In this document: one piece after another, positions 6,620 through 42,512 of the stretch
How the letters are laid out: every line of letters begins with the position of its first letter
Numbering within the stretch: the first letter of the stretch is position 1
From: Bacilli bacterium
GTDB taxonomy: Bacteria; Bacillota_I; Bacilli_A; ML615J-28; CAG-698
Length of the DNA: 64,000 bases
NCBI GenBank assembly: GCA_031553555.1
Contig: JAVBLL010000002.1
Location: 17,738 to 81,737, forward strand
Direction of reading: 5' to 3'
Notes under the pieces: model-generated
Seen by the model: the letters and a program-made list of their open reading frames with translations, nothing else
Database searches by the model: none
What the model was told of the DNA's origin: nothing
Program-made: the position numbers and the translations under genes

Positions 6620-7792
6620 TTAGTTATTTGGTAATTTCCCACAATATTCAAATATTAAGTCAAGTTTACTATCAATATTTGCCTTCGCAATTTCGGTAAG
6701 ACGCAAATGTGATTTCTGGTGATGTACTACGTACGGGTTCTTGCCTGAATCTTGTGTCGCTGCATAAAAATATCGTCCTAAGTCGTCAATCATTGCTTTA
6801 ACTAATATCCCATTTCCTATTGTAGTATCAATATGTTTAAAATCACGCACTTTGCAGTAGTATGAATATTTATCCATCCAAGGATATTCTAATTTCATTG
6901 TTTGGTCAGCTTCTTGAGCAGTGCTATCGAATATACCACAACCAACAATGTGTTGAGTGGGCTTGCCTCTTTCATCTATGCTCACAACAGCCATGTAGAA
7001 CTGTTCTCCTAACCTAATGCTCGGCATGCCTTTTTTAAATGGAAATGCAGTAATCATTTGGCCTTGCCAAATCGTAGGCTTATATCTCTCTGATGGTTTT
7101 GATCTACTATCAGCAGATTCCTCAAATTTTAACCAAATTCTATTTATAGAATGTGATAATGGCATTAATGATTGCGGTGCAGTATTTTGAGCTGATGTAG
7201 AAATAGGAGAACTATGCACTTTAACGGTTGACGGTGGCTCTGCACCCCATTTCTCAGTAGGCTCATATGGTTCTTCAAAGGGCTTTTCATTTTGAACTTT
7301 ATTTTTAACCTTGTCTATCATTTCGTCTATTCGGGATGCCAAGATCTCAAAACTTGGATTTGTTATTCGATATAAATTCTGAAAGAATTCAATAAGCTCA
7401 CGAACCAACTGTGGATCTTCCTGAATAAACAATGATAATTCATTATTATAATGAAAACCACCAGATGTAAAATTAGCAGAACCAACGATTGCAGAAGTAT
7501 CATCAAAAATGTAAAGTTTTGTATGAAGTTTTTTTAATGCATACAAACCGATATTTGCATTTTTTAAATCTCTCAGTCCTTCAATACAACTTACTCCCTT
7601 GTAAAAATCACTATCATAAAAGCGTGTGATTACATCAACTTGTATAGACTGATTTAACAGTTTCGTTTTACATAATAAATCTGTCATCTCCTTTCCCAAG
7701 AAAGGAGATATGATTTTTATACTGCTATTTACAGAAGCAAAAAGATTCGTTATGATTTGAAAATGATTATTTGAAACAACAGAAATATACAT
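6620..7792 (-). CDS. PLD/HKD-superfamily nuclease-like protein with uncharacterised ~200 aa C-terminal domain
   Basis: 390 aa. One HxK(x4)D motif plus a GSxN motif (residues 90-109: HTKLYIFDDTSAIVGSANFT) after an ~85 aa N-terminal region. An acidic/proline linker follows, then an aromatic-rich C-terminal domain with no motif I recognise. Own promoter and RBS (gaggtg 8 nt before ATG). Confidence 0.6.
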   Translation of the reverse strand: MYISVVSNNHFQIITNLFASVNSSIKIISPFLGKEMTDLLCKTKLLNQSIQVDVITRFYDSDFYKGVSCIEGLRDLKNANIGLYALKKLHTKLYIFDDTSAIVGSANFTSGGFHYNNELSLFIQEDPQLVRELIEFFQNLYRITNPSFEILASRIDEMIDKVKNKVQNEKPFEEPYEPTEKWGAEPPSTVKVHSSPISTSAQNTAPQSLMPLSHSINRIWLKFEESADSRSKPSERYKPTIWQGQMITAFPFKKGMPSIRLGEQFYMAVVSIDERGKPTQHIVGCGIFDSTAQEADQTMKLEYPWMDKYSYYCKVRDFKHIDTTIGNGILVKAMIDDLGRYFYAATQDSGKNPYVVHHQKSHLRLTEIAKANIDSKLDLIFEYCGKLPNN

Positions 7793-9401: not shown

Positions 9402-10458
9402 TGAACATATAAAAGCGGGTGGAAAAATTGTTGAATTTGGTGGTTTTTTATTACCTATCGAATATAGCAGTATTGCTGAAGAACATGCAGCTGTCAGAAA
9501 TGATGTAGGAGTATTTGATGTCTCTCATATGGGAGAAATTAGAGTGACCGGTAAGGATACAATTGATTTTTTAAATTACTTATTGACTAATGATATGAGA
9601 AATTTTTCAAATGGTAAAATGATATATAATTTTATGTTATATGAAGATGGTGGAGTAGTCGATGATTTAATGGTTTATAAATATAGTGATACTGAATGTT
9701 TACTTGTTGTTAATGCATCAAATACTGATAAAGACTATGCATATATGCTTGAACACAAAGGGCAGTTTGATGTTGTGATTATTAATGAATCATTAATTTA
9801 TGGTCAGCTTGCTTTGCAAGGCCCTAAGGCTATAGAAATATTAAGAAGTATTTCTTCAAATGAAATTGATAATTTAAAATTGTTTGATTTCAAGCATATT
9901 GAAATTATGGATAATGATTTTCTAGTTTCCAGAAGTGGTTATACTGGAAGTGATGGGTTTGAAATTTATGGTGAGAATAATAACATATTAGTATTATTTA
10001 GAAAACTTATGTCAATGCAGGTAACACCATGTGGACTGGGTTGTCGAGATACTTTGCGATTTGAGGCAGGAATGCCGCTTTATGGACATGAAATTGACAG
10101 TGACATTACACCAATTGAAGCAGGATTAAAATATGCTGTTAATATTAATAAAAATTTTATCGGTAAAGAGAAGGTCTCATCGCAAATTGAAAATGGTGTA
10201 TCAAGAAAAATAGTAGGCTTAGAAATATTAGAACGCGGAATAGCCAGAAACGGATATGATGTTTTAGTTGACGGAGCAGTTATTGGCAAGATAACAACTG
10301 GATATATGATACCAAATTCCAATAATATTTATGCTATGGCCCTAATTGATAGTACTTATGCGGAAATTGGTACAGAAGTGAATATACAGATTAGAAAAAA
10401 TCTAGTAAAAGCAAAGATCAGAAACAAAAACTTTTTAAAGAAAAAATACGTAAAATAG
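9379..10458 (+). CDS. gcvT: glycine cleavage system aminomethyltransferase T
   Basis: MKKTILYDEHIKAGGKIVEFGGF...DVSHMGEI; GGAGG RBS 5 nt before the ATG at 9379. The ORF track start at 9367 is an upstream TTG. Confidence 0.85.
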   Translation: MKKTILYDEHIKAGGKIVEFGGFLLPIEYSSIAEEHAAVRNDVGVFDVSHMGEIRVTGKDTIDFLNYLLTNDMRNFSNGKMIYNFMLYEDGGVVDDLMVYKYSDTECLLVVNASNTDKDYAYMLEHKGQFDVVIINESLIYGQLALQGPKAIEILRSISSNEIDNLKLFDFKHIEIMDNDFLVSRSGYTGSDGFEIYGENNNILVLFRKLMSMQVTPCGLGCRDTLRFEAGMPLYGHEIDSDITPIEAGLKYAVNINKNFIGKEKVSSQIENGVSRKIVGLEILERGIARNGYDVLVDGAVIGKITTGYMIPNSNNIYAMALIDSTYAEIGTEVNIQIRKNLVKAKIRNKNFLKKKYVK

Positions 10459-10466
10459 GGGGAAAA

Positions 10467-10844
10467 ATGAGTAAAGTATTAGAAGGTTTAAAATATGCAA
10501 AAAGTCATGAATGGATAAAATTGGATGGAAATGTGGCTACAATTGGTATTACAGATTATGCCCAAAAAAGTTTAGGTGCTATTGTATATGTTGATGCATT
10601 TGAAGTTGGCGAAGAAGTAGAACAATTTAATGAATGTGGTGCTGTTGAGAGCACAAAAGCGGCATCAGATATTATGTCACCTGTTAGCGGCGAAATTATT
10701 GAAGTGAACGAAAATGTCATTAATAATCCAGAGTTAATCAATCAAGATGCATATTCTAATTGGATTTTAAAAATTAAAATAAATGATTCTTCAGAATTAG
10801 ATAATCTATTAGATAGTAAAAGTTATACGGCGGAACAAAAATAA
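10467..10844 (+). CDS. gcvH: glycine cleavage system H protein (lipoyl carrier)
   Basis: 125 aa with ...SHEWIK...ESTKAASDI...; the lipoyl-lysine motif is ESTKA. Confidence 0.85.
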   Translation: MSKVLEGLKYAKSHEWIKLDGNVATIGITDYAQKSLGAIVYVDAFEVGEEVEQFNECGAVESTKAASDIMSPVSGEIIEVNENVINNPELINQDAYSNWILKIKINDSSELDNLLDSKSYTAEQK

Positions 10845-12169
10845 TGTACAAATATTTTCCTCATACAAAGCAAGATGTCAAGGAAATGTTAGAAAAGGTT
10901 AATCTGAAAAATATTGATGATCTTTTTTTAGATATTCCTGATTCGGCAAAATATAATGGTGAACTTGATTTACCAAATTATATGTCAGAGTTAGAACTTA
11001 GAAGACATGCTCAAAAACTTGGAAGTAAAAATAAAAAATTAGTAAGTTTTTTAGGTGCTGGAAGTTATGATGTTTATACACCTAGTATTATTAAGTCATT
11101 AACTTCACGTCAAGAGTTTTTAACATCCTATACGCCTTATCAGCCGGAAATCTCACAAGGAACTTTGCAATACATTTTTGAATTTCAAAGTATTATTTGC
11201 GAATTAACTAATATGGATGTCAGCAATGCCTCTGTATATGATGGGGCAACAGCATCGGCTGAGGCAATGTTTATGGCGCATGCCCAAACAAAAAAGAAGA
11301 AAATTCTTGTTAGTGATACTGTAAGCCCACGAACTATTGATGTATTAAAAACATATGGCAAATATCGTGGTCTTCAAATTGAAATTGTTGAATCTATACA
11401 ATATTCTATTTCTGAGTCTTCAGTAAAAAATAAGTTAAATGATGATGTTGCCTGTCTCATCGTTCAAAATCCTAATTATTATGGAATTGTTGAAGAATAT
11501 GATAATATTGTTGAAATATTAAAAACAAACAAAAGTTTGTTTATTATGAATGTTGATCCTAGTACTTTAAGTGTTTTAAAAACACCTGGAGAAATTGGTG
11601 CAGATATTGTCTGTGGCGATGCGCAAACGCTTGGAATACCATTATCTTATGGGGGACCATACTTAGGATTTATGGCAACTACTAATAAATTACTTAGAAA
11701 ACTTCCGGGTAGAATCATCGGCATGACTAATGACGTTGATGGAAAGCGAGGATTCGTTTTAACATTACAAGCAAGAGAACAGCATATTAGAAGAGAAAAA
11801 GCCAATTCTAATATATGTTCTAATCAAAGTTTGATGGCATTACATGCATCGATATATGTAAACACAATGGGACCACAGGGGTTAATTGATGTTGCAAAAC
11901 AAGCATATAGTAATAGTCATTACTTTTTTGATAGATTGCTAAAAACAAATAGATTTTTTAGTTGTTCAACTAAACCATTTTTTAAGGAATTTATTGTAAA
12001 AACAAATATTAATATTAGTGGACTGAATAAATATTTATTAAAAAATGAAATTCTCGGTGGACTTGATCTTGGCGATGGCAAGTATTTATTATGTGCTACT
12101 GAAGTTAGAACAAAAAATGAAATAGATCAATTTATTTCCTTAGTGGAGGAATATGATGATGTACAATAA
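10844..12169 (+). CDS. gcvPA: glycine dehydrogenase (decarboxylating) subunit 1
   Basis: 441 aa with ...FLGAGSYD...YTPYQPEISQG..., typical of the P-protein N-terminal half. Confidence 0.85.
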   Translation: MYKYFPHTKQDVKEMLEKVNLKNIDDLFLDIPDSAKYNGELDLPNYMSELELRRHAQKLGSKNKKLVSFLGAGSYDVYTPSIIKSLTSRQEFLTSYTPYQPEISQGTLQYIFEFQSIICELTNMDVSNASVYDGATASAEAMFMAHAQTKKKKILVSDTVSPRTIDVLKTYGKYRGLQIEIVESIQYSISESSVKNKLNDDVACLIVQNPNYYGIVEEYDNIVEILKTNKSLFIMNVDPSTLSVLKTPGEIGADIVCGDAQTLGIPLSYGGPYLGFMATTNKLLRKLPGRIIGMTNDVDGKRGFVLTLQAREQHIRREKANSNICSNQSLMALHASIYVNTMGPQGLIDVAKQAYSNSHYFFDRLLKTNRFFSCSTKPFFKEFIVKTNINISGLNKYLLKNEILGGLDLGDGKYLLCATEVRTKNEIDQFISLVEEYDDVQ

Positions 12170-27016: not shown

Positions 27017-28090
27017 ATGTTTATAGATATATTAAAATCGCTCGTTATTCCAAGTAAAATGAAAAAATATCGTTATATGAGTTGTTTAATAGCAATGCTA
27101 ATTTTTATTGCTGCAATTTATTTGACGACTTTGCCATATGGCTCATTAATTAATAGAAAAAAAGAAACATATTTGCAGGAGAAAACTTATGTTTCTGCGT
27201 ACTATGACATGGGTGATGACCTTACTGAAGGTTACCAAAAGATAAAAGACGCCAATTATAAAGTGGTAGACGGAGTGATGGTATCAAGTAAAGAGACTAA
27301 TGAAAAAGAAGTTGTCAGTTATACGTATATGAAAAACGAAGAAGTTATTACCACCCACTTGGTTTTTGATATTACCAACTCAGTAACAACAGAACTTGAT
27401 GAGTTAAAAAAAGAATTTTTAGAACTACACCCTAGTTTTTCATCAGGTACAGCTATGCAAGTATCTCAACTAGTTTATATAAAATTATTAAAAGATAGTA
27501 CTTTAGATAAAAATGTTTTATTTACAGAATATAGTGGTTATGAACAAGAAAAAATTCAAGAAGAAATAGATAAAGTATCTAATTTCGATTTGTTTGGAAT
27601 AACTCACAACCCTAATGATTATTTAATTGGATTTTTCAAAGAATATATGATTAGTCAAATTCCATATGAGGAAAATGAAAAAATAATTTATCCATCTCTA
27701 ACTGCAAGTTATAGTAGTAATTCAGTGGAGATTGATTTTTCTGATATTACAAATGTTCATGATATTGGTCGTAAAGTTTGTAATGGATTATTTAATACTC
27801 TAAAAGCTAATGATAAAAACCAAAATTTATTACAAGCTTTAGGATATATTATATTGTATCCAACAGTTTTAATTATTTTAATGTGGTTTTCAATGCGTAA
27901 ACGTGGAAATCTAAAAACATTTAAAGAATATTATAATGTTGCATCAATTGCATCAATTGTTCCGACAATTATAACTTTTATTTTAGCATGGTTTATACCT
28001 GGTGCAGTTATGGCATATGGAATATTATTTAGCATAATGGTTTTATTTGCATACATTTCTATTAACTCAAAACCAGAATTAGGAGATTAA
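27017..28090 (+). CDS. membrane protein, unknown function
   Basis: One N-terminal TM helix, a ~230 aa extracytoplasmic region and three C-terminal TM helices. AGGAG RBS. Confidence 0.55.
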   Translation: MFIDILKSLVIPSKMKKYRYMSCLIAMLIFIAAIYLTTLPYGSLINRKKETYLQEKTYVSAYYDMGDDLTEGYQKIKDANYKVVDGVMVSSKETNEKEVVSYTYMKNEEVITTHLVFDITNSVTTELDELKKEFLELHPSFSSGTAMQVSQLVYIKLLKDSTLDKNVLFTEYSGYEQEKIQEEIDKVSNFDLFGITHNPNDYLIGFFKEYMISQIPYEENEKIIYPSLTASYSSNSVEIDFSDITNVHDIGRKVCNGLFNTLKANDKNQNLLQALGYIILYPTVLIILMWFSMRKRGNLKTFKEYYNVASIASIVPTIITFILAWFIPGAVMAYGILFSIMVLFAYISINSKPELGD

Positions 28091-28091
28091 A

Positions 28092-29786
28092 ATGAAATTT
28101 AAAAATTATCCTTACCAAAGAATAAATATTAAAGAAACAATTGATGCAATCAATGATATGCAGAAACGTTTTGCTATTGCCTCGGATATAAAAGAACAAA
28201 TAGAATGTATAGAAGAATTTAATGCTCTTTGCCTACATGTATCAACAATGGAAAATCTTGTATATGTACGTCATACTATTGATACCAGAGATAAGTTTTA
28301 TGATGAAGAACAAAATTTTATTGATGAAAAAGGCCCTTCAATAAAAAGTGCCCAAACAGAGTTTATAAAAGTCTTACTGAAATCATCATTTAGAAAAGAA
28401 TTAGAAGAGACTTTTGGAGTACATTTATTTAATTTATTAGAGGCTCAATTAAAGTCATTTGACGAAAAAATCATGGAAGAGGTTATTGTTGAAAACAAAT
28501 TAATAACAAAATATAACAGATTGATTGCCAGCTGTGAAATTGAATTTGCCGGAAAAAAATATAATCTTTCACAGTTAAATGCTTTTTTTGAAAATGATAA
28601 TCGTGAAATCAGAAAAAATGCTCAAGAAACATATTGGAATTTTTTTATTGAACATGAAAAAGAGTTTGATGAAATATATGATGAATTGGTCAAGATTCGT
28701 GATAAAATGGCTAAGAAAATGGGTTATCAAAATTATGTTGAATTTGGATATTATCGTTTAGGTCGAACTGATTATAATAGTGAAATGGTTGCTAATTACC
28801 GCAAACAAATAGCAGAATATGTTGTGCCAATTAGCCAAGAACTTTATAAGCGCCAACAAAAACGTATGGACATAGATCAGTTATATTACTATGATCTTCC
28901 AGTAGAATTTAAATCAGGAAATCCCACTCCCAAAGGTACACCAGATAAATTAGTAAAGATGGCACAAGAAATGTATGCAGAGATGTCATTAGATACAAAA
29001 GAATTTTTTGATTTTATGATTGAGCATGAACTAATGGATTTGGTAGCAAAACCAGGAAAAGAAGGCGGAGGTTATTGTACTTATTTTTCTGATTTTCAGT
29101 CCCCATTCATTTTCTCGAATTTTAATGGAACAAAAGGTGATGTAGATGTTTTAACCCATGAAGCTGGTCATGCATTTCAAGTATATCAATCAAGAAATGT
29201 TAAAATTGCTGAATATATTTGGCCAACTTATGAGGCATGTGAGATTCATTCAATGAGTATGGAGTTCTTTGCTTGGCCTTGGATGGAAAAGTTTTTTGAA
29301 GAAGATACAGCAAAATATAGATTTTCTCATTTACAATCAGCTTTAAAATTTATCCCATATGGGGCAAGTATTGATGAGTTTCAACACTATGTTTATGAAA
29401 ATCCTGAAGCTACCCCACAAATGAGAAAAAGTAAATATCGTGAAATAGAGAAAAAATATGTTCCTCACAAAAATTATGAAAATAATGTTTTTCTTAATAA
29501 TGGTGGTCTATGGATGAGACAAAGTCATGTATTTGCCAGTCCATTCTATTATATTGATTATACTCTTGCCCAAGTATGTGCTCTGCAATATTTAATTAAG
29601 GATATGGAAAATCATCAAACTGCTTGGAATAATTATTTATCACTTTGTAAGCTTGGAGGTACAAAATCATTTTTGGATTTATTAAAAACTGTTAAGTTAG
29701 ATAATCCTTTTAATGATGGAACTATTAATAAGATTTGTTTGAAATGTAAAAATATATTAGATAATATGGATGACAGTAAATTTTAA
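28092..29786 (+). CDS. pepF: oligoendopeptidase F (M3B family)
   Basis: 564 aa with HEAGHAFQ (HExxH) and a downstream Glu. Confidence 0.8.
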   Translation: MKFKNYPYQRINIKETIDAINDMQKRFAIASDIKEQIECIEEFNALCLHVSTMENLVYVRHTIDTRDKFYDEEQNFIDEKGPSIKSAQTEFIKVLLKSSFRKELEETFGVHLFNLLEAQLKSFDEKIMEEVIVENKLITKYNRLIASCEIEFAGKKYNLSQLNAFFENDNREIRKNAQETYWNFFIEHEKEFDEIYDELVKIRDKMAKKMGYQNYVEFGYYRLGRTDYNSEMVANYRKQIAEYVVPISQELYKRQQKRMDIDQLYYYDLPVEFKSGNPTPKGTPDKLVKMAQEMYAEMSLDTKEFFDFMIEHELMDLVAKPGKEGGGYCTYFSDFQSPFIFSNFNGTKGDVDVLTHEAGHAFQVYQSRNVKIAEYIWPTYEACEIHSMSMEFFAWPWMEKFFEEDTAKYRFSHLQSALKFIPYGASIDEFQHYVYENPEATPQMRKSKYREIEKKYVPHKNYENNVFLNNGGLWMRQSHVFASPFYYIDYTLAQVCALQYLIKDMENHQTAWNNYLSLCKLGGTKSFLDLLKTVKLDNPFNDGTINKICLKCKNILDNMDDSKF

Positions 29787-32407: not shown

Positions 32408-33670
32408 ATGAAAATTTTAAAATCATTTACCTTAATTATTTGTTTGTACATGATTAGTATTTTTACTAATCATGTTTTTGGTATTGAAGAAACGGACTGG
32501 ACTATTATTGATCAACCTTATTATTATATTATTAATGTTAACGATAAAGTGCGAATAGAAAGTGTTATGGAAGATATTGCTTTAATTGCCTATGATGATT
32601 ATGATGGATTAATAACGGACAAAATTAAAATTAGTAATCCAAATAATCAATATGTAATAAAAGTTTATGATTTAAAAATAGAAGATAGACAGCTGGGGAC
32701 TTATGAAGTGATTTTTAATGTTATCGATAATTCGGGAAATACTGCAAGTGTAGCGGTTTATTTTGTCGTTATTGATAATACGGCACCCTTATTTTTAGAT
32801 ACTTCCATTATTAGTTATAATATAAACGTTGATGATATTAACATAACTGAACAAGAAATAATAAGTAAACTAAAGATCAAAGATAATCATGATGCATATA
32901 AAGATTTAATAATAGAAACGATTAGTGGTTCAATTAATGAAATGACTGTAGATATAGATAATCCCTATTATTTTACTGTTAGAGCAACTGATTTGAGTGG
33001 CAATAAAAATGAGCAAATAATTACAATGAATTTTTATGATGATACTTCGCCGATAATTGAAATGGATAAAAATAAGATAATTAAGTCATATAAAGATAAT
33101 AGTACAACTGAAAGTATTTTGGAAAGTTTGAATATTGTTGTTACGGATAATTATGATGATAATTTAAGTTATTATGTTGTTAGTAATGATTATGAAAATA
33201 ATAAAAATGTTATTGATACCTATCGTATAGTAATAGGTGCCAAAGATACAAGCGGAAACGAAGTTTTAGAAACAATTGAAGTTGTTGTTGAAGATAAAAT
33301 TCCACCAGTGTTTTATTTAGACATCAGCAAAGTGTATGTGGCAAACGATATTCAATTAAAAATTAATGATTTTGTTCAATTATTAAAAGCCAGTGGACAA
33401 ATCAAAAATCAATCATACCAAGAATACATCATTGATGAAAACTATTCAAAAAACTATAATATTGCTGGAGAATATAATTATGAACTAAGACTAGTCTACA
33501 ATGATGGTGATTATCAAGATTTTTCATTTAAAGTCAATGTAATAGGTAAAAATGAGTCTATTGTTAAGGAACCCTTTTTTGCAAAGATTTGGAATTTCAT
33601 AAAAAAAATAGCCCATATAATTGGAGATATTTTCAAGTGGCTAGTGGATAAAATTCGTCAATTGTTTTAA
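32408..33670 (+). CDS. secreted protein with repeated Ig-like (DUF5011-type) domains
   Basis: Signal peptide, then at least three repeats of the pattern G.Y.v...a.D.SGN......V.V.D...P (e.g. GTYEVIFNVIDNSGNTASVAVYFVVIDNTAP). C-terminal amphipathic helix. Confidence 0.6.
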   Translation: MKILKSFTLIICLYMISIFTNHVFGIEETDWTIIDQPYYYIINVNDKVRIESVMEDIALIAYDDYDGLITDKIKISNPNNQYVIKVYDLKIEDRQLGTYEVIFNVIDNSGNTASVAVYFVVIDNTAPLFLDTSIISYNINVDDINITEQEIISKLKIKDNHDAYKDLIIETISGSINEMTVDIDNPYYFTVRATDLSGNKNEQIITMNFYDDTSPIIEMDKNKIIKSYKDNSTTESILESLNIVVTDNYDDNLSYYVVSNDYENNKNVIDTYRIVIGAKDTSGNEVLETIEVVVEDKIPPVFYLDISKVYVANDIQLKINDFVQLLKASGQIKNQSYQEYIIDENYSKNYNIAGEYNYELRLVYNDGDYQDFSFKVNVIGKNESIVKEPFFAKIWNFIKKIAHIIGDIFKWLVDKIRQLF

Positions 33671-33971: not shown

Positions 33972-34508
33972 ATGATAATCATTATTATTTTTGTTTTCAT
34001 TATTTTCATTTTACTAATAATGCCCGTGGGGATTAGATTTATATATAATGATCAGAAAAGTGATGTAGATATATATTTTTATAAATTATTTAATACCCGC
34101 TTTGATTTAGACGAATTCATACGTTTATTTGTAACTGATAAAGATGACCGTGAAAAAATTAGTTTTGCAGTAATACGATACAATGTTATATTAGCATTTC
34201 AAAGCCGAAAGGTTTTTCGAGATATATGCAAATATTCTAAAGTTAGAAAAATAACGGTTCTTTTGAAAGAAGATTATGAAAAGATTTATACTTTTTTTGC
34301 TTACTGGATGGCAGTAAGCGAACTTAGTCAATTTCTTCATAGCAATTTCAAAGCAGTAGAAAATGAATATTATATGACCTCTAACTTACAATCGGAAATA
34401 AACTTTGAATTTATTTTAGAAGTAAGAGGGATAATATTTCTATTTATTTTATTTAAAAATATAAAAGAAATATTTAGAATAAAAAAATATATGAAAAAAA
34501 AGAGGTAA
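33972..34508 (+). CDS. YtfI-like (DUF2953) sporulation-associated protein
   Basis: N-terminal TM helix and a basic C-terminus. It sits immediately upstream of ytfJ, as in Bacillus. Confidence 0.5.
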   Translation: MIIIIIFVFIIFILLIMPVGIRFIYNDQKSDVDIYFYKLFNTRFDLDEFIRLFVTDKDDREKISFAVIRYNVILAFQSRKVFRDICKYSKVRKITVLLKEDYEKIYTFFAYWMAVSELSQFLHSNFKAVENEYYMTSNLQSEINFEFILEVRGIIFLFILFKNIKEIFRIKKYMKKKR

Positions 34509-34513
34509 ATACT

Positions 34514-34927
34514 ATGGAACATCCTATTTCGGATTTATTTAAACTATCTAGTGCATCTTTAAAGGAACTCACAAGTGTTGATACGATTATTGGAAAAACC
34601 GTTATTATGGAAAATGGCATTTTTATTGTCCCGATTTCCAAAATAAAATGTTCATTTGCAACCGGCGGAGTAGAAACGATGAGCGCTAAAGCAGATGGCA
34701 AAATGCCATTTGGTGGGGCAACAGGAGGAAATGTTACAATTACTCCGATTGCTTTTTTAGTAGTCAACAATGAAGAAGTCAAATTGCTACATTTAGAAGA
34801 TCAAACGCATTTACTAGAAAAGATTATCGATGATATTCCAGAATTAGTTGGCTCAATGAAAAATCTTTTTAGTAAGAAACCAAAAACAGAAACTATGGAA
34901 GTCGTTGATAAAAAAATTAAATTGTGA
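34514..34927 (+). CDS. ytfJ: GerW/YtfJ-family sporulation protein
   Basis: ...PISKIKCSFATGGVETMSAKADGKMPFGGATGGNVTITPIAFLVV... is the GerW pattern. Confidence 0.7.
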   Translation: MEHPISDLFKLSSASLKELTSVDTIIGKTVIMENGIFIVPISKIKCSFATGGVETMSAKADGKMPFGGATGGNVTITPIAFLVVNNEEVKLLHLEDQTHLLEKIIDDIPELVGSMKNLFSKKPKTETMEVVDKKIKL

Positions 34928-37686: not shown

Positions 37687-38136
37687 ATGAAAATTGCAAA
37701 AATAGTTATTGAAAAAAGTTTTGGTTTGAAAGAAACAATAAGCTTAGAATTATTTGAAAAGGAGGCACCTGGTACAGTTGCCAATTTTGAAAAACTTGCT
37801 AACAGTGGTTTTTATAATGGATTGCTGTTTCATCGTGTTATTCCAGGTTTTGTTGCTCAAGGGGGATGCCCTCAGGGAACAGGAACTGGAGGGCCGGGGT
37901 ATACAATAAAATGTGAAACATTTAATAATCCCCATAAACATATTCAAGGAGCCTTATCGATGGCTCATGCTGGTAAGGATACAGGAGGTAGTCAATTTTT
38001 CATATGCTTTGACAGCTTTCCTCATTTAGATGGTGTTCATACTGTTTTTGGACAGGTTATTGAAAATATTGATGCGGCAATGAATATAAAACAAAAAGAT
38101 AAAATGCTTGAAGTAAAAGTTTATAGTAAAGGGTAG
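37687..38136 (+). CDS. ppiB: peptidyl-prolyl cis-trans isomerase, cyclophilin type
   Basis: [15 protein letters not shown]...GGSQFFIC cyclophilin signature. Confidence 0.85.
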
Positions 38137-38227
38137 TCATAGCTGACTGCCCTTTTATTTTTATATAAAAATAAAAGAGTAATTTCTTCACTTTTTTTAA
38201 AATATATAGTTGAAAAAAGGGGGATAT

Positions 38228-40198
38228 ATGAAAAAAATAATATTGTTATTGTTTTTTATTAGTTTGTTTTTAATTAATATTCATCTATTAGTTAATGGAT
38301 CTAGTGCAAATGTTGAAGATATCTACATTGAAATCGGAGTAGGTAGTGATGATCTGCTTTTACTTGATGGATTTGTAATAGTTGATAATGAAGTCAATTG
38401 GAATTTTGTTGGTCATTATGAAGTTCTTTACTATAATGAATTCACATCAAAATATTTAAAAAGAGAAGTGGTTGTTCAAGACATTGAAAATCTTCATAAA
38501 ACGGTTATGAAGTTTAGTAATTTTTCAGAAATCAACTTAGAAAGTGATTATAGTTATGTAGATACTTTGTATAAAACATCAACTAGTTACTATGTATTAG
38601 CAAATTATCAAGTGCCTAATCCAACATACTATGATCAAGAATATGGTTGTGTTTTTTATTATGAAAATGACATTCTGAAATGGCAATATGCTTATAATTC
38701 GGAATTTGGTAATGTTTATGCTGGATGTCTAACAAAAAATAGTATAGTAATATGCCTAGCAATATATGATTCACCACTTTCTAGCCAAACTAGTTTGATG
38801 CTTGTAGAATTAAATGAAAATAAGGAAGTAATAAAGTCCAAGAAATTTATTGGAAATGGCCAAGACCATCCATTTAGAATTTTTTTTCAAGATAATTTCC
38901 TTTATTTATTAATGACAACAACCTCAAAAACTGATGATTATTATAAATATCACAAAGCATCTAATAATGTTATTTTGTTATTGAAATTAGACTATGCTAA
39001 TCTCTTAGAAATTGGTTATGTTGTTGTTGGCAACAATAGTTACAATTATTTTATTGACTGTGTTTTCAATGATAATATGATAACCTTGTTAGTGCATACT
39101 AGTGGGACTTCTGGTAGTTATAATAATGACAAGAGTTATGAAGGTTATTTAGTAGTTAGAATTAATCATCTTATGAAAATAACTAATTATTTTTATGTAG
39201 GAAGATCATATGACAGTATGAAAGGGTTGATTTCTAATGGCTATAATATTTTTATTTATTATACAAACCCTTTTGAAAGTGGGAATCATTTATGTTTACA
39301 AAAATTAACTAATGAAGGGAAAAGTATTTTCCGTCAAAAATTGAGCATGGTTGACGTTAATTATTATATTAGTGATATGAAGGTGATATATGGAGAAGAG
39401 GGAAATATTTACTGTTTTTTAAATGCTGCAAAAAATGGACAATATTACGATGGTGGCTTATTAGTGATAAGTAATGATAATTTGGAGTATTTAGAAGGAG
39501 ATTACCAGCAAGATCGATTGGTAAAGGTAGAACACTATGGTAAAGAAATTGTTAAAGTATATTATTCAAATAACACCATCAAACTTCTTAATTGTGAAAT
39601 ACTTCAAGTTAGCAGTTATTATTCTATTAATGATAAGTTTAAAAAACTCATTTACATAGTTAATTATAATGGTCAAGTAATTGAAGCATTCTATAATAAT
39701 GAACTAGATTATCAAAGATATGGTTATCAAGAGACTTTAGCAATCTATTATTTATCAAATAATAAAATGCTTATTTTAAAAGAAAACATAAATGTTTTTT
39801 CAATTACAAATATCAAACAAAATCAAACTTATCAATTAGGTGTAAAGCTAGAGTTCAACAGCGATGGATATTTGGGTGATTCACTAATTTATGATGGATA
39901 TGCAGTTATGGCTAAGGGGACTTATAATTTGCGATTAAGAGGGCTAGGTGATGAAGAAACAATTATTCAATTTCATGTAGATGATTTGCTTATCAAATGC
40001 AAATATAAAACAAATAATTATCCCATGCTTGAAAAAACAGAAGAGAGCTATAATGCAAAAACAAATATTCCTGATAACATTGACATTGATATAAAAAATC
40101 AAAAAGCAAAGGGCGGTTCTGTTATTATTGTTTTGAGTATGCTTATAATTTCACTTATAATTGTTGTAGTTATTAGGAGGAAGAAATGTCGATATTAA
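38228..40198 (+). CDS. large Tyr/Asn-rich surface protein with signal peptide, Ig-like segments and C-terminal TM anchor (paralogue 1)
   Basis: Signal MKKIILLLFFISLFLINIHLLVNG and a C-terminal hydrophobic helix plus basic tail (VIIVLSMLIISLIIVVVIRRKK). Ig-like motifs near the N-terminus (GHYEVLYYNE...VVVQD) and C-terminus (KGTYNLRLRGLGDEETIIQFHVDD). Confidence 0.55.
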   Translation: MKKIILLLFFISLFLINIHLLVNGSSANVEDIYIEIGVGSDDLLLLDGFVIVDNEVNWNFVGHYEVLYYNEFTSKYLKREVVVQDIENLHKTVMKFSNFSEINLESDYSYVDTLYKTSTSYYVLANYQVPNPTYYDQEYGCVFYYENDILKWQYAYNSEFGNVYAGCLTKNSIVICLAIYDSPLSSQTSLMLVELNENKEVIKSKKFIGNGQDHPFRIFFQDNFLYLLMTTTSKTDDYYKYHKASNNVILLLKLDYANLLEIGYVVVGNNSYNYFIDCVFNDNMITLLVHTSGTSGSYNNDKSYEGYLVVRINHLMKITNYFYVGRSYDSMKGLISNGYNIFIYYTNPFESGNHLCLQKLTNEGKSIFRQKLSMVDVNYYISDMKVIYGEEGNIYCFLNAAKNGQYYDGGLLVISNDNLEYLEGDYQQDRLVKVEHYGKEIVKVYYSNNTIKLLNCEILQVSSYYSINDKFKKLIYIVNYNGQVIEAFYNNELDYQRYGYQETLAIYYLSNNKMLILKENINVFSITNIKQNQTYQLGVKLEFNSDGYLGDSLIYDGYAVMAKGTYNLRLRGLGDEETIIQFHVDDLLIKCKYKTNNYPMLEKTEESYNAKTNIPDNIDIDIKNQKAKGGSVIIVLSMLIISLIIVVVIRRKKCRY

Positions 40199-42366
40199 CA
40201 ATTTTTCTAAGTTTTTTTATGTCTTTTTTTCATGATTTTAAGATTATTGATGAAAGCGTTGAGGAATTAGTATTTACATTTGGTGAATTTGAGATTAAAG
40301 AAATTCATTCTATGCGTTATTTATATTATAATGATATATTGTTAGAAGAAGAAAACACAATGATAGTTTCTAAATATTTTTTAGAAAGTAATCGTTTTGT
40401 TATATTTAGTTGGAATACATTCACATCTGATGTTGTCATTCGAAGTTATAGTTTAAATGGTTCAAGACAAACAAAAATAATTTTTGATAACAAAATTGTA
40501 GGTGATTTTGATGTAGCATTATATGATGATATGTATTATTTAGTTGGTGGAGTTAATAGTTATACTAATTCGTTTTTTTATAATGCTCATGATGGTAAAA
40601 ACTATTTGTTAGGAATGAATAATGTTCTTTTTAGTTTTGATAGCAATTTTTCTATTAAAAATGTTAGAATAACAGGAGGAGTATTGGATGAATTTTTTTA
40701 TAAAATTACTGTTTCAAATGAGTTTATATATGTAGTTGGTTATAAAGAGACTTTATCGGGATATGATTTTGGTAATGGTGGTGGGGAGGATTTTGGCTAT
40801 ATTTTAGCAACTTATAATCATACAATGAGTTTATTAGATTATGTAGTCACAGATGAGGAGATTGTTGATTTTTTTAATATAAATAATAAGAATGTTTTAA
40901 TTACAAAAAATCAAATTCATCAATTAAATAATGATTTAAATACCATCATAAGCCTGAAATTACCCTCTACATGCATTTTTGCGAGTGTGAGTAAGAATAA
41001 TTGCCTCCTGATTTTAAGTCAAGATAAACTGAAAATTTACGACCTTTCTAATATGAAACTTTTAAATGAATATTTATTATCTCAAAACATCAACCGAGCT
41101 TTATATTATAATGATGTCTTTTATTTGATTGGTCAAGATCAAATTCATAAACTGATTATTTATGATTATGATAGTTTTAAAGAACAAGTTGTTTATGATG
41201 ATGTTGTAGAAATGAATGAAGTAATAAATGGATGGAACTTCCAATATAAATTATTGAATAAAATATATCTTAATGTTTTTGATCCGCTAGTTAATGGTGA
41301 TTATCAAGTATTATATGATTATGGTGCTTTTGAAATAGAGGGTACAGTAAAGGTATTAGAAAGGGCAAATGTGACAGATGGTAACATTTATAGTGTTGGT
41401 TATTGTTTATTGTTTTCTGGCCGTGGATACTTAAATGATATTCTCATCTATAATAATCATCAAATTACCGCTCCTGGTAATTATACATTGAAGCTGTACG
41501 ATCAAAATAGTAATTGCCGCATCATTAATTTTTTTGTAGAATATGAGCAAATAAATTTTTACGAAAATGATAATAAAAATTGGGACTATGAATTGTCTCA
41601 GAATGAAGAATTATTCTTCTCGTTTACACTCAATCAAAATAATGTATCTATTGAAAGAGTAGTAGTGAATGATGAAGATTGGCCTTATACTTATGTTGAT
41701 CGACAAATTAATTTGTGTTTTTCTGAAAAAAATTCGGGTTTATATTATTATGATGTAAAAATGATTGAATACTCATTAGATGGAGAAATGTATTATATTT
41801 CTATAGATAAACAATTAAAAATTAAAATATTAGAAAATGATTTGTCAATAACTAGTTATATTAGTGATAATACTAAAGTGATTAATTATAAAGGAGAAGT
41901 CCAGGATTCATTAAATATGCTTCGATATGTAAAAATTAAAATCATTGGGAATAGTGAACAAGAATACTGTTTATCATTGAAATCACAAAAAATCGTTTTG
42001 ACACTTAATAAAAGCCTTGAGAACCCATTAGTTTATGTATGTTTAGTTTTCGACAATGGAAGTAAGCAGTTAGGTATAAAAACTCTTTTAAATATGCAGT
42101 TTATTGGGCATTTTGATGTAATAAATATTGGTGAAATAATAATGCATATGCGGGAAAATACAACAACTAATTTCACTTTGAAAATATTGAAAACAAGTGG
42201 TTTAGAGCGAATGTTTGTTCAAAATAAAGAAATATATGCTTTTCAAAAAACAACATATATAGCTAGCCTATTGATTGGTATTGGCGTTATGGTTATAACT
42301 ATTATTAGCGGTTTATTTATTTATAAAAAAGAGTTTAGATTAGGATTCAAAAGAAAGATTAAGTAA
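40186..42366 (+). CDS. large Tyr/Asn-rich surface protein with signal/TM N-terminus and C-terminal TM anchor (paralogue 2)
   Basis: AGGAGG RBS; start overlaps the upstream stop. C-terminal anchor IASLLIGIGVMVITIISGLFIYKKE. Shared motif APGNYTLKLYDQNSNCRIINFFVE matches KGTYNLRLRGLGDEETIIQFHVD in paralogue 1. Confidence 0.55.
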   Translation: MSILTIFLSFFMSFFHDFKIIDESVEELVFTFGEFEIKEIHSMRYLYYNDILLEEENTMIVSKYFLESNRFVIFSWNTFTSDVVIRSYSLNGSRQTKIIFDNKIVGDFDVALYDDMYYLVGGVNSYTNSFFYNAHDGKNYLLGMNNVLFSFDSNFSIKNVRITGGVLDEFFYKITVSNEFIYVVGYKETLSGYDFGNGGGEDFGYILATYNHTMSLLDYVVTDEEIVDFFNINNKNVLITKNQIHQLNNDLNTIISLKLPSTCIFASVSKNNCLLILSQDKLKIYDLSNMKLLNEYLLSQNINRALYYNDVFYLIGQDQIHKLIIYDYDSFKEQVVYDDVVEMNEVINGWNFQYKLLNKIYLNVFDPLVNGDYQVLYDYGAFEIEGTVKVLERANVTDGNIYSVGYCLLFSGRGYLNDILIYNNHQITAPGNYTLKLYDQNSNCRIINFFVEYEQINFYENDNKNWDYELSQNEELFFSFTLNQNNVSIERVVVNDEDWPYTYVDRQINLCFSEKNSGLYYYDVKMIEYSLDGEMYYISIDKQLKIKILENDLSITSYISDNTKVINYKGEVQDSLNMLRYVKIKIIGNSEQEYCLSLKSQKIVLTLNKSLENPLVYVCLVFDNGSKQLGIKTLLNMQFIGHFDVINIGEIIMHMRENTTTNFTLKILKTSGLERMFVQNKEIYAFQKTTYIASLLIGIGVMVITIISGLFIYKKEFRLGFKRKIK

Positions 42367-42389
42367 TCATTTCGTAATATTAGTTTTTA

Positions 42390-42440
42390 AAATGGAATCA
42401 ATCTATTAATATACCTTTTATCAATAGATTGATTCCATTT
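42390..42440. repeat. perfect 18-bp inverted repeat (hairpin) with 15-nt loop; probable terminator or protein-binding site
   Basis: aaatggaatcaatctatt ... aatagattgattccattt, with no clean U-tract on either side. Confidence 0.6.
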
Positions 42441-42512
42441 GTATATATTATTAGGGAATGTTTTTATTTTCAAAAACACGAATGTGTGATATACTATTAT
42501 TAGGTGACGTTA

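Follow-up and report, generated by a model that had tools for sequence, protein, structure and literature searches.

In the 64-kb stretch of a Bacilli bacterium genome analysed here (contig JAVBLL010000002.1; the whole stretch is called the window, and coordinates are window positions unless a lineage is named), two large genes overlap on the forward strand, namely gene A, the first open reading frame (ORF1), and gene B, the second (ORF2). The original prediction, made from the sequence of this stretch, had described them as a translationally coupled pair of paralogous surface proteins inserted between ppiB and dnaE. Comparison with related lineages demonstrates that the A-B pair is a fixed, vertically inherited locus of its clade, and the features of both proteins suggest that A and B may form a heteromeric cell-surface complex, the reading that we favour, with chances that we see as evenly balanced. 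The genes and the expression signals around them are the following, all on the forward strand (+):

37687-38136, +: ppiB (Pro_isomerase), located between ackA and gene A in the window lineage only
38128-38155, +: terminator-like hairpin 3′ of ppiB, with a 12-bp stem followed by a T-rich tail; upstream limit of the A-B unit
38214-38224, +: purine-rich, Shine-Dalgarno-like stretch AAAAAGGGGGA, which precedes the gene A start codon
38228-40198, +: gene A (ORF1), 656 aa counted from the ATG
40175-40180, +: AGGAGG, Shine-Dalgarno site for gene B, 5 nt 5′ of the gene B ATG
40186-42366, +: gene B (ORF2), 726 aa
42390-42440, +: AT-rich strong hairpin with an 18-bp stem followed by a U-rich stretch; likely terminator of the A-B unit

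The ORF calls returned the two large ORFs with the lengths given by the original prediction, and the ribosome-binding site of gene B indeed lies inside the last codons of gene A, with which gene B overlaps by 13 nt in the window. The two codons AGG AGG open the basic tail of protein A as two arginines and double as the Shine-Dalgarno site of gene B. Since AGG is rare (5.9% of the arginine codons in 21 window genes), two consecutive AGG codons in the tail of gene A therefore look selected for ribosome binding, and purine-rich tail codons comparable to the AGGAGG of the window occur in five other lineages. The start of gene A was placed at the ATG at 38228 rather than at the upstream TTG at 38210, because the homologues also begin with MKKI(I/L). 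On the downstream side, the RNA fold of 42367-42460 reached −32.5 kcal/mol (z = −8.0 compared to shuffles), and a simple terminator scan overlooked the hairpin at 42390-42440 because its stem is GC-poor. Bounded by terminator-like hairpins, the A-B pair looks like a self-contained bicistronic unit. The GC content of the window is low (about 25-36% per kb) with no compositional break at the A-B locus, and the hidden Markov model (HMM) of the B family found no second A/B copy within the 64 kb. Note that a phage or mobile origin of the pair was also considered, and was ruled out by the housekeeping synteny, the absence of any PHROG match and the lack of a compositional break.

The A-B locus and its family across lineages

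The locus was read in 11 lineages (the window, L001/L014, L002/L003/L015, L005, L006, L007, L008/L009, L010, L011, L012 and L013). Gene B lies directly 3′ of gene A in all ten unfused lineages, the two genes being fused in L008/L009, and dnaE is found downstream in 10 of the 10 lineages for which that side is visible, directly in eight of them and behind small mobile-looking genes in L010 and L013. On the other side, ackA is seen upstream in nine lineages but not in L006, nor in L005, whose contig begins inside gene A; as L006 carries a LrgB-like gene in place of ackA, the upstream synteny is less fixed than the dnaE side. In eight lineages (L001, L003, L007, L008 and L010-L013), ackA is directly followed by gene A without ppiB. 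Since ppiB is seen between ackA and gene A only in the window lineage, the newcomer at this site is ppiB and not the A-B pair. The claim that the pair had been inserted between ppiB and dnaE must therefore be reversed, as dnaE is the constant neighbour and ppiB the extra gene, and the pair is not an insertion specific to this genome, since the locus is clade-wide with 187 relatives.

Three loci deserve a short description on their own. In L013, the gene between gene B and dnaE (10357-11655) is IS605 OrfB/TnpB-like, with a Cas12f-like TNB domain, and in L010 the same interval (10708-11879) holds a Peptidase_M78 gene and a 189-aa ORF. The gene upstream of gene A in L006, a metagenome-assembled genome (MAG) labelled Acholeplasmataceae, encodes a LrgB-like multi-pass membrane protein (240-917).

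The size of the family became visible with an exhaustive HMMER search only. Word-indexed searches retrieved between one and three relatives (27-30% identity), none of them named or carrying a Pfam domain, and missed known members even with a profile, whereas HMMER with the B alignment retrieved 187 proteins at E ≤ 1e-3 and 63 at E ≤ 1e-30, mostly of 700-750 aa and matching end to end. Where source names are present, they read ‘hypothetical protein [Bacilli bacterium]’ and come from MAGs; among species-representative genomes, a scan picked out three MAGs, two named ‘uncultured Bacilli’ from rabbit gut and one named ‘Acholeplasmataceae bacterium’. Pfam, NCBIfam and PHROG contained no family-level match (window proteins and 6-66 members scanned), and we found no earlier description of the A/B family in the literature. 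A and B represent a family of considerable size that is confined to one clade, lacks annotation and combines known folds. As an example of matches that were set aside, scattered single-member hits to Mala_s_1-like, Forkhead and fn3 were treated as chance, and bulb-lectin matches in the PDB (E 0.12, obtained with single sequences and shallow profiles) were below threshold and distrusted. The original prediction had seen no obvious homologue in model Firmicutes, and no curated adhesin or S-layer family matches; it had also considered that the proteins might belong to a well-known adhesin or S-layer family present across the clade, and while the family is indeed present clade-wide, it is none of the well-known ones.

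Domain architecture of the two proteins

The segments of both proteins, with domain boundaries that are approximate and folds that are predicted, are listed below in gene order.

38228-38305, +: gene A signal peptide, aa 1 to about 26, MKKIILLLFFISLFLINIHLLVNGSS; hydropathy peak and MKK n-region, kept in homologues
38315-38542, +: gene A extra N-terminal domain, aa about 30-105, with the motif VNWNxxGxYEVxY; outside the overlap of A and B in hhalign
38543-39637, +: gene A predicted beta-propeller region, aa about 106-470, about 6-7 four-stranded blades
39719-39985, +: gene A conserved Ig-like (immunoglobulin-like) beta-sandwich module, aa about 498-586, common to gene B
40115-40174, +: gene A C-terminal transmembrane (TM) helix, aa 630-649, Kyte-Doolittle peak 3.34
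40175-40198, +: gene A basic cytoplasmic tail RRKKCRY and stop codon, read from the sequence
40186-40236, +: gene B N-terminal hydrophobic segment MSILTIFLSFFMSFFHD, signal or signal-anchor by hydropathy
40258-41220, +: gene B predicted beta-propeller region, aa about 25-345
40552-40815, +: gene B SBBP-type blade and blade junction, aa about 123-210, including GYKETLSGYDFGNGGGEDFGYILATYN, from profile matches
41221-41550, +: gene B Ig-like region, aa about 346-455, composed of the end of a DUF5011-like Ig domain and then the module common to gene A
41551-42255, +: gene B-specific C-terminal extension, aa about 456-690, strands in the AlphaFold2 (AF2) model at a predicted local distance difference test (pLDDT) of 50-85
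42262-42366, +: gene B C-terminal TM helix (aa 693-715) with basic tail KKEFRLGFKRKIK and stop codon, by hydropathy

The N-terminus of gene A (MKKIILLLFF...VNGSS) is a signal peptide by hydropathy, and canonical signal peptides are found in the distant family members of gene B. The C-terminal TM helix and the basic tail are shared by nearly all family members, the cytoplasmic tails of A and B measuring 7-13 aa, so that the layout first read from the sequence (an N-terminal signal or TM segment, a C-terminal TM helix and a short basic tail) stands. As the basic tails come after the C-terminal TM helix, the large domains would face outward, and A and B are best described as predicted type I (stop-transfer anchored) membrane proteins with their ectodomains outside. 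The term ‘tail-anchored’, as used in the original prediction, is a misnomer, because both proteins have N-terminal export signals. Their Tyr/Asn richness was confirmed, the contents being 10.2/9.9% for ORF1, 7.7/9.8% for ORF2 and 5.2/6.7% for the long ORFs of the window (i.e., ~1.5- to 2-fold enrichment over the other long ORFs). No LPXTG-like motif or lipobox was detected by regular expression in 12 A and B proteins, and the NCBIfam sorting-signal and WxL models did not match A or B, as had been stated for LPXTG and WxL. In addition, no SLH or other cell-wall-binding domain was found in A, B or 66 family members scanned with Pfam (and with NCBIfam for the window proteins). A new C-terminal sorting signal was considered separately and ruled out, since the alignments lack a conserved motif before the TM helix.

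For the ectodomains, the evidence comes from structure prediction and from profile searches. The AF2 models rest on shallow alignments (mean pLDDT of 43 for A and 48 for B); both are all-beta, with four-strand runs, an N-terminal helix and a C-terminal TM helix, and residues 108-325 of gene A reach a pLDDT of 60-86. Searched against PDB sequences, the deep B profile (83 sequences) matched the propeller of CylK repeat by repeat (E 5e-5), the CylK C-terminal domain being a seven-bladed propeller (PMC8916777). The same profile matched, at positions about 122-190, between 5 and 22 tandem repeats in four proteins (P0112, P0113, P0143 and P0153) that are SBBP proteins according to Pfam (PF06739, E down to 4.7e-46), and the reverse search with an SBBP-repeat HMM detected one clear blade per B protein (145-185 in window B). 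With Foldseek, the gene B model gave TM-scores of only 0.1-0.15 in the PDB, to multi-propeller proteins, and the best PDB match by structure and sequence was the CylK propeller. We infer from these matches that the ectodomain is a very divergent SBBP-type beta-propeller with about 6-7 blades, a count that is approximate. The beta-propeller-like structure suggested at the outset is thereby strengthened, and the repeat motif quoted for it, YVVGYKETLSGYDFGNGGGEDFGYILATYN, corresponds to an SBBP-type blade junction according to the B profile and to the SBBP and CylK matches.

The SBBP proteins and CylK (PDB 7RON/7FH6, seven-bladed propeller) are hence the closest known systems by sequence and fold, the likeness residing in a blade signature (strand, G, G/D/N-rich loop, D-a-f-v-a-K-type strand) at aa about 123-210 of gene B. 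However, SBBP proteins are typically long, secreted and multi-propeller, and CylK, an enzyme that also has a Ca-binding domain, is soluble, whereas A and B would each be TM-anchored, with one propeller carried by Ig-like modules, and always occur as a paralogous pair. This kinship raises the question of whether the propellers are surface-anchored enzymes (lyases, hydrolases or alkyl-transferases), given that the closest solved relative is CylK, that CylK is structurally similar to streptogramin lyases (PMC8916777) and that related propellers such as the Vgb lyase are enzymes. We regard this as quite improbable, since the match covers the generic SBBP blade scaffold and not an active site, the N-terminal Ca-binding domain needed by CylK is missing here, and among 83 members hardly any propeller column is conserved, which speaks against a conserved catalytic centre. 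The statement of the original prediction that no enzyme motif is present also holds, as no enzyme family matched in Pfam or NCBIfam.

The best-conserved part of both families is, by far, a shared beta-sandwich module. Using 83 B and 11 A sequences, 13 of its 67 columns in B (386-452) and 17 of its 66 columns in A (521-586) are at least 80% conserved; outside the module, there are 11 such columns in B and 10 in A, of which the propeller regions hold 7 and 2, respectively. The module also occurs in P0157, where nine tandem copies are matched by the A profile and eight by the B profile, and it is therefore a mobile extracellular building block that is not private to the A/B family. Ten isolated modules gave no Pfam match to the module itself; the module-matched stretch of P0157 overlaps a BiPBP_C match (PF06832, E 6e-20) with Big_13 also matched, and in one family member the segment preceding the module matches the Ig-like PF16403 at E 0.017. 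These matches support indirectly the Ig-like identity of the module, which had been proposed for a segment in both proteins. The position given for this segment, just before the TM helix, is valid for gene A but not for gene B, in which the module (aa 388-452) is followed by ~240 residues of predicted beta-sandwich. Note that P0157 itself (931 aa) is an unrelated secreted protein in which the tandem copies of the A/B module are followed by a transglutaminase core.

Each protein has in addition a part that the other lacks. The extra N-terminal domain of gene A (~75 aa), missing from gene B, is probably a DUF5011-like Ig domain with a weak match to BT_2262 (5fq7, E 0.14), the model being poor in this part. 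The C-terminal extension of gene B (~240 aa) is missing from gene A, keeps its length across the B family and is predicted by AF2 to form two or three beta-sandwich domains.

Pairing, selection and putative function

The paralogy of A and B is hardly visible with pairwise searches, as BLASTP aligned 65 aa only (A 521-585 with B 388-452, 34% identity, E 4e-7). Profile-profile alignment with hhalign gave a probability of 98.7% (E 1.7e-16) for six A against six B sequences, and of 99.8% (E 1.8e-27) for 11 A against 83 B sequences, over 402 columns joining A 152-593 with B 52-460; the B-family HMM also matched window protein A at E 1.8e-17. The alignments over about 400 columns thus support the paralogy claimed in the original prediction, and they indicate that A and B are true paralogues over about 400 residues that arose by an ancient duplication.

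Several lines of evidence link the two genes beyond their common origin. The stop of A and the start of B overlap by 4, 13 or 16 nt in seven of the ten unfused lineages, which supports the idea of a coupled pair, and a gap of 2-10 nt separates them in the other three. A-B fusions of 1362-1386 aa form three separate clusters at 50% identity (P0068, P0070 and P0073), in which the N-terminal halves match the whole A profile and the C-terminal halves match B; P0073, which was recovered from three contigs (the two shown are of different origin), occupies the interval between ackA and dnaE. The fusion junction keeps the TM helix of A, a short basic loop, the signal-like segment of B and an AxA-like site (i.e., a TM hairpin), and therefore both ectodomains must lie on one side of the membrane, tethered side by side. 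Among the lineages examined, neither gene A nor gene B was found alone at a complete locus. These data, which are of the ‘Rosetta-stone’ type, suggest a functional and probably a physical link between A and B. It could be argued that A and B are independent surface proteins with their own ligands, simply kept adjacent after a tandem duplication, as suggested by the divergence that restricts BLASTP to so short a segment, by the different domain complements (the N-terminal domain added in A, the C-terminal stalk added in B) and by the small gap that replaces the stop/start overlap in three lineages. We consider this unlikely, because the co-occurrence and order are strict in every lineage examined, the overlap is present in most unfused lineages, three separate fusion clusters exist and neither gene stands alone at a complete locus.

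The two proteins diverge rapidly between lineages. Identity to the window proteins is 24-28% for A and 21-33% for B, compared to 57-80% for AckA, 65-88% for PfkA and 44-55% for DnaE in the same lineages. Between strains, the ratio of nonsynonymous to synonymous substitution rates (dN/dS) for L001 against L014 was 0.19 for A and 0.08 for B, with neighbouring genes at 0 to 0.30, and for L002 against L015 it was 0.41 for B, 0.11 for the C-terminus of A and 0.18 for DnaE, all these values being based on small counts. At the strain level, both are clearly functional genes on which purifying selection acts, somewhat relaxed in the case of B. Two other regimes were rejected: diversifying selection, with dN/dS below 1 in both strain pairs (small counts), and a phase-variable adhesin, as neither tandem repeats nor a homopolymer excess was seen.

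Under the reading of a heteromeric surface complex, coupled translation would provide roughly equal amounts of A and B. After Sec-dependent export, their C-terminal stop-transfer helices would retain both proteins in the membrane, leaving the basic tails on the cytoplasmic side. In each protein, the ectodomain would be an SBBP-type propeller on Ig-like modules, with stalks of unequal length; gene A would have its extra N-terminal Ig-like domain and gene B its extra stalk of about 240 aa. A and B would then assemble into a pseudo-symmetric heteromer, the pairing being probably made through the conserved Ig-like module, as the best-preserved part of both, and the two fast-evolving propeller heads would bind an extracellular ligand (e.g., host, particle or glycan). 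The combination of a conserved module and variable heads would fit a module acting as the A-B interface, or as the contact to a constant partner, with the propellers facing a variable environment. Adhesion or ligand capture is a tentative proposal for the role of the complex, less probable than the complex itself.

Some observations weigh against this scheme. The N-terminal segment of gene B has no basic n-region in this genome, SBBP is recognisable by sequence in only one or two blades, and the Pfam SBBP model matches none of 66 B-family members at E ≤ 0.01, nor the window proteins at E ≤ 1; moreover, the AF2 models are poor, which makes blade number and domain boundaries approximate. Finally, the fixed single-copy synteny, the purifying selection and the lack of phase-variation repeats fit a structural or housekeeping role in the envelope no less well than a classical adhesin, and perhaps better. 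The pair could then be a structural component of the envelope, either an S-layer-like membrane-anchored coat or a scaffold of envelope biogenesis, which we hold to be possible but doubtful. Membrane-anchored S-layer pairs are known from archaea, and the propeller protein BamB organises envelope biogenesis in other bacteria. Such a role would agree with the invariable placement of one copy (none other in the 64-kb window) next to core genes in 11 lineages whose A and B proteins are no more than 21-33% identical to those of the window, with strain-level purifying selection comparable to that of neighbouring genes, and with sequences free of phase-variation repeats or homopolymer excess. In contrast, no SLH or other S-layer domain was found with Pfam, and the propeller evolves much faster than the neighbours, which is more typical of an exposed surface facing ligands or an immune system than of a scaffold whose partners do not change.

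By architecture, the closest system to the proposed A-B complex is the Nap complex of mycoplasmas, where a large propeller N-domain, a smaller domain near the membrane and a single TM helix make up each protein. Its subunits P140 and P110 are paralogous, combine a seven-bladed propeller and crown with a small C-domain and a single TM helix, and function as heterodimers on the surface of cells of the Bacilli lineage (PMC7280502). The A/B pair is likewise paralogous and co-encoded, with a low-confidence propeller and one TM helix each. A very distant true homology with the Nap cytadhesins (P140/P110, P1/P40-P90) would account for this same logic (a paralogous pair from one operon, an N-terminal propeller, a smaller C-domain, a TM helix and a heterodimer; PMC7280502), and the pair is hosted by Bacilli, including a lineage labelled Acholeplasmataceae. 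We nevertheless judge it extremely improbable: deep profiles searched against PDB sequences retrieved none of the Nap chains, even at E up to 10, the Nap chains show no sequence or top-ranking fold similarity to A/B, no Pfam adhesin family appeared in 66 members, with MgpC and Adhesin_P1 matching neither the window proteins nor the family members scanned, and the proteins are about half the Nap size, with no evident ‘crown’. In addition, A/B differ from Nap in having Ig-like modules and the SBBP signature, and the cytoplasmic tails of only 7-13 aa are minimal. Working like Nap may thus serve as an analogy, and membership of A/B in the Nap family is not supported. A bolder form of the surface-complex reading, in which the pair would be the principal surface receptor of an uncultured Acholeplasma-like Bacilli clade, as a pseudo-symmetric heterodimer and the free-living or commensal counterpart, or even precursor, of Nap, appears highly improbable to us.

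Other comparisons remain more remote. The head-on-Ig-stalk design of integrin alpha and of Sema/IPT receptors such as MET is alike only generically (TM-score 0.1-0.15), and no FG-GAP or Sema match was obtained with Pfam in A, B or the family members scanned. The immunodominant membrane proteins of phytoplasmas (Amp, Imp and IdpA), also exposed on the surface, combine an N-terminal signal, a C-terminal TM anchor, a fixed housekeeping position and fast divergence. They are about 150-250 aa long, are encoded by single genes with no paralogous partner, have no propeller or Ig domains and have been reported under positive selection, in contrast with the dN/dS of 0.08-0.41 obtained here.

The lineages that carry the pair are known only from metagenomes (rabbit gut, a record name suggesting an anaerobic digester, and others). 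If one looks for their main surface structure or receptor, the A-B pair, single and always present, is the candidate that comes first. The A-B-dnaE arrangement, usually with ackA upstream, also provides a clean phylogenetic marker locus, and since the family is missing from Pfam, NCBIfam and the PDB, its definition would annotate at least 187 sequence clusters. If the pair were Nap-like, it would bear on the origin of the mycoplasma cytadhesins, and if the precursor reading were true, the ‘paired propeller adhesin’ design would predate the pathogenic mycoplasmas; if it were only a generic propeller-plus-Ig surface pair, it would be an ordinary new family.

Neighbouring genes in the window

In the window and in the loci compared, no gene was decisive for the presence of a cell wall. 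A 178-aa membrane ORF and, behind it, a gene of the Spore_YtfJ family (34514-34927) lie within 33972-34927 (+). Upstream of the locus, L010, L012 and L013 also keep YtfJ, which directly follows a short unannotated ORF in L012 and L013, and its presence is curious for MAGs labelled Bacilli or Acholeplasmataceae with small AT-rich genomes. At 32408-33670 (+), a 420-aa ORF encodes a signal peptide and three or four HYR/DUF5011-like repeats (GTYEVIFNVIDNSGN, YYFTVRATDLSGN and DTYRIVIGAKDTSGN), with no Pfam match at 1e-5 and no PHROG match; as L004 and L008 have an unannotated ORF at the same position, it would be another clade-specific surface protein. A 564-aa ORF (28092-29786, +) carries a zinc-protease-like HEAGHAF motif without a Pfam match at E ≤ 1e-5, and it adjoins an unannotated 357-aa membrane ORF (27017-28090). 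Finally, a protein with a PLD-like/NgoFVII-type restriction endonuclease domain is encoded at 6620-7792 (−), in a stretch of negative GC skew.

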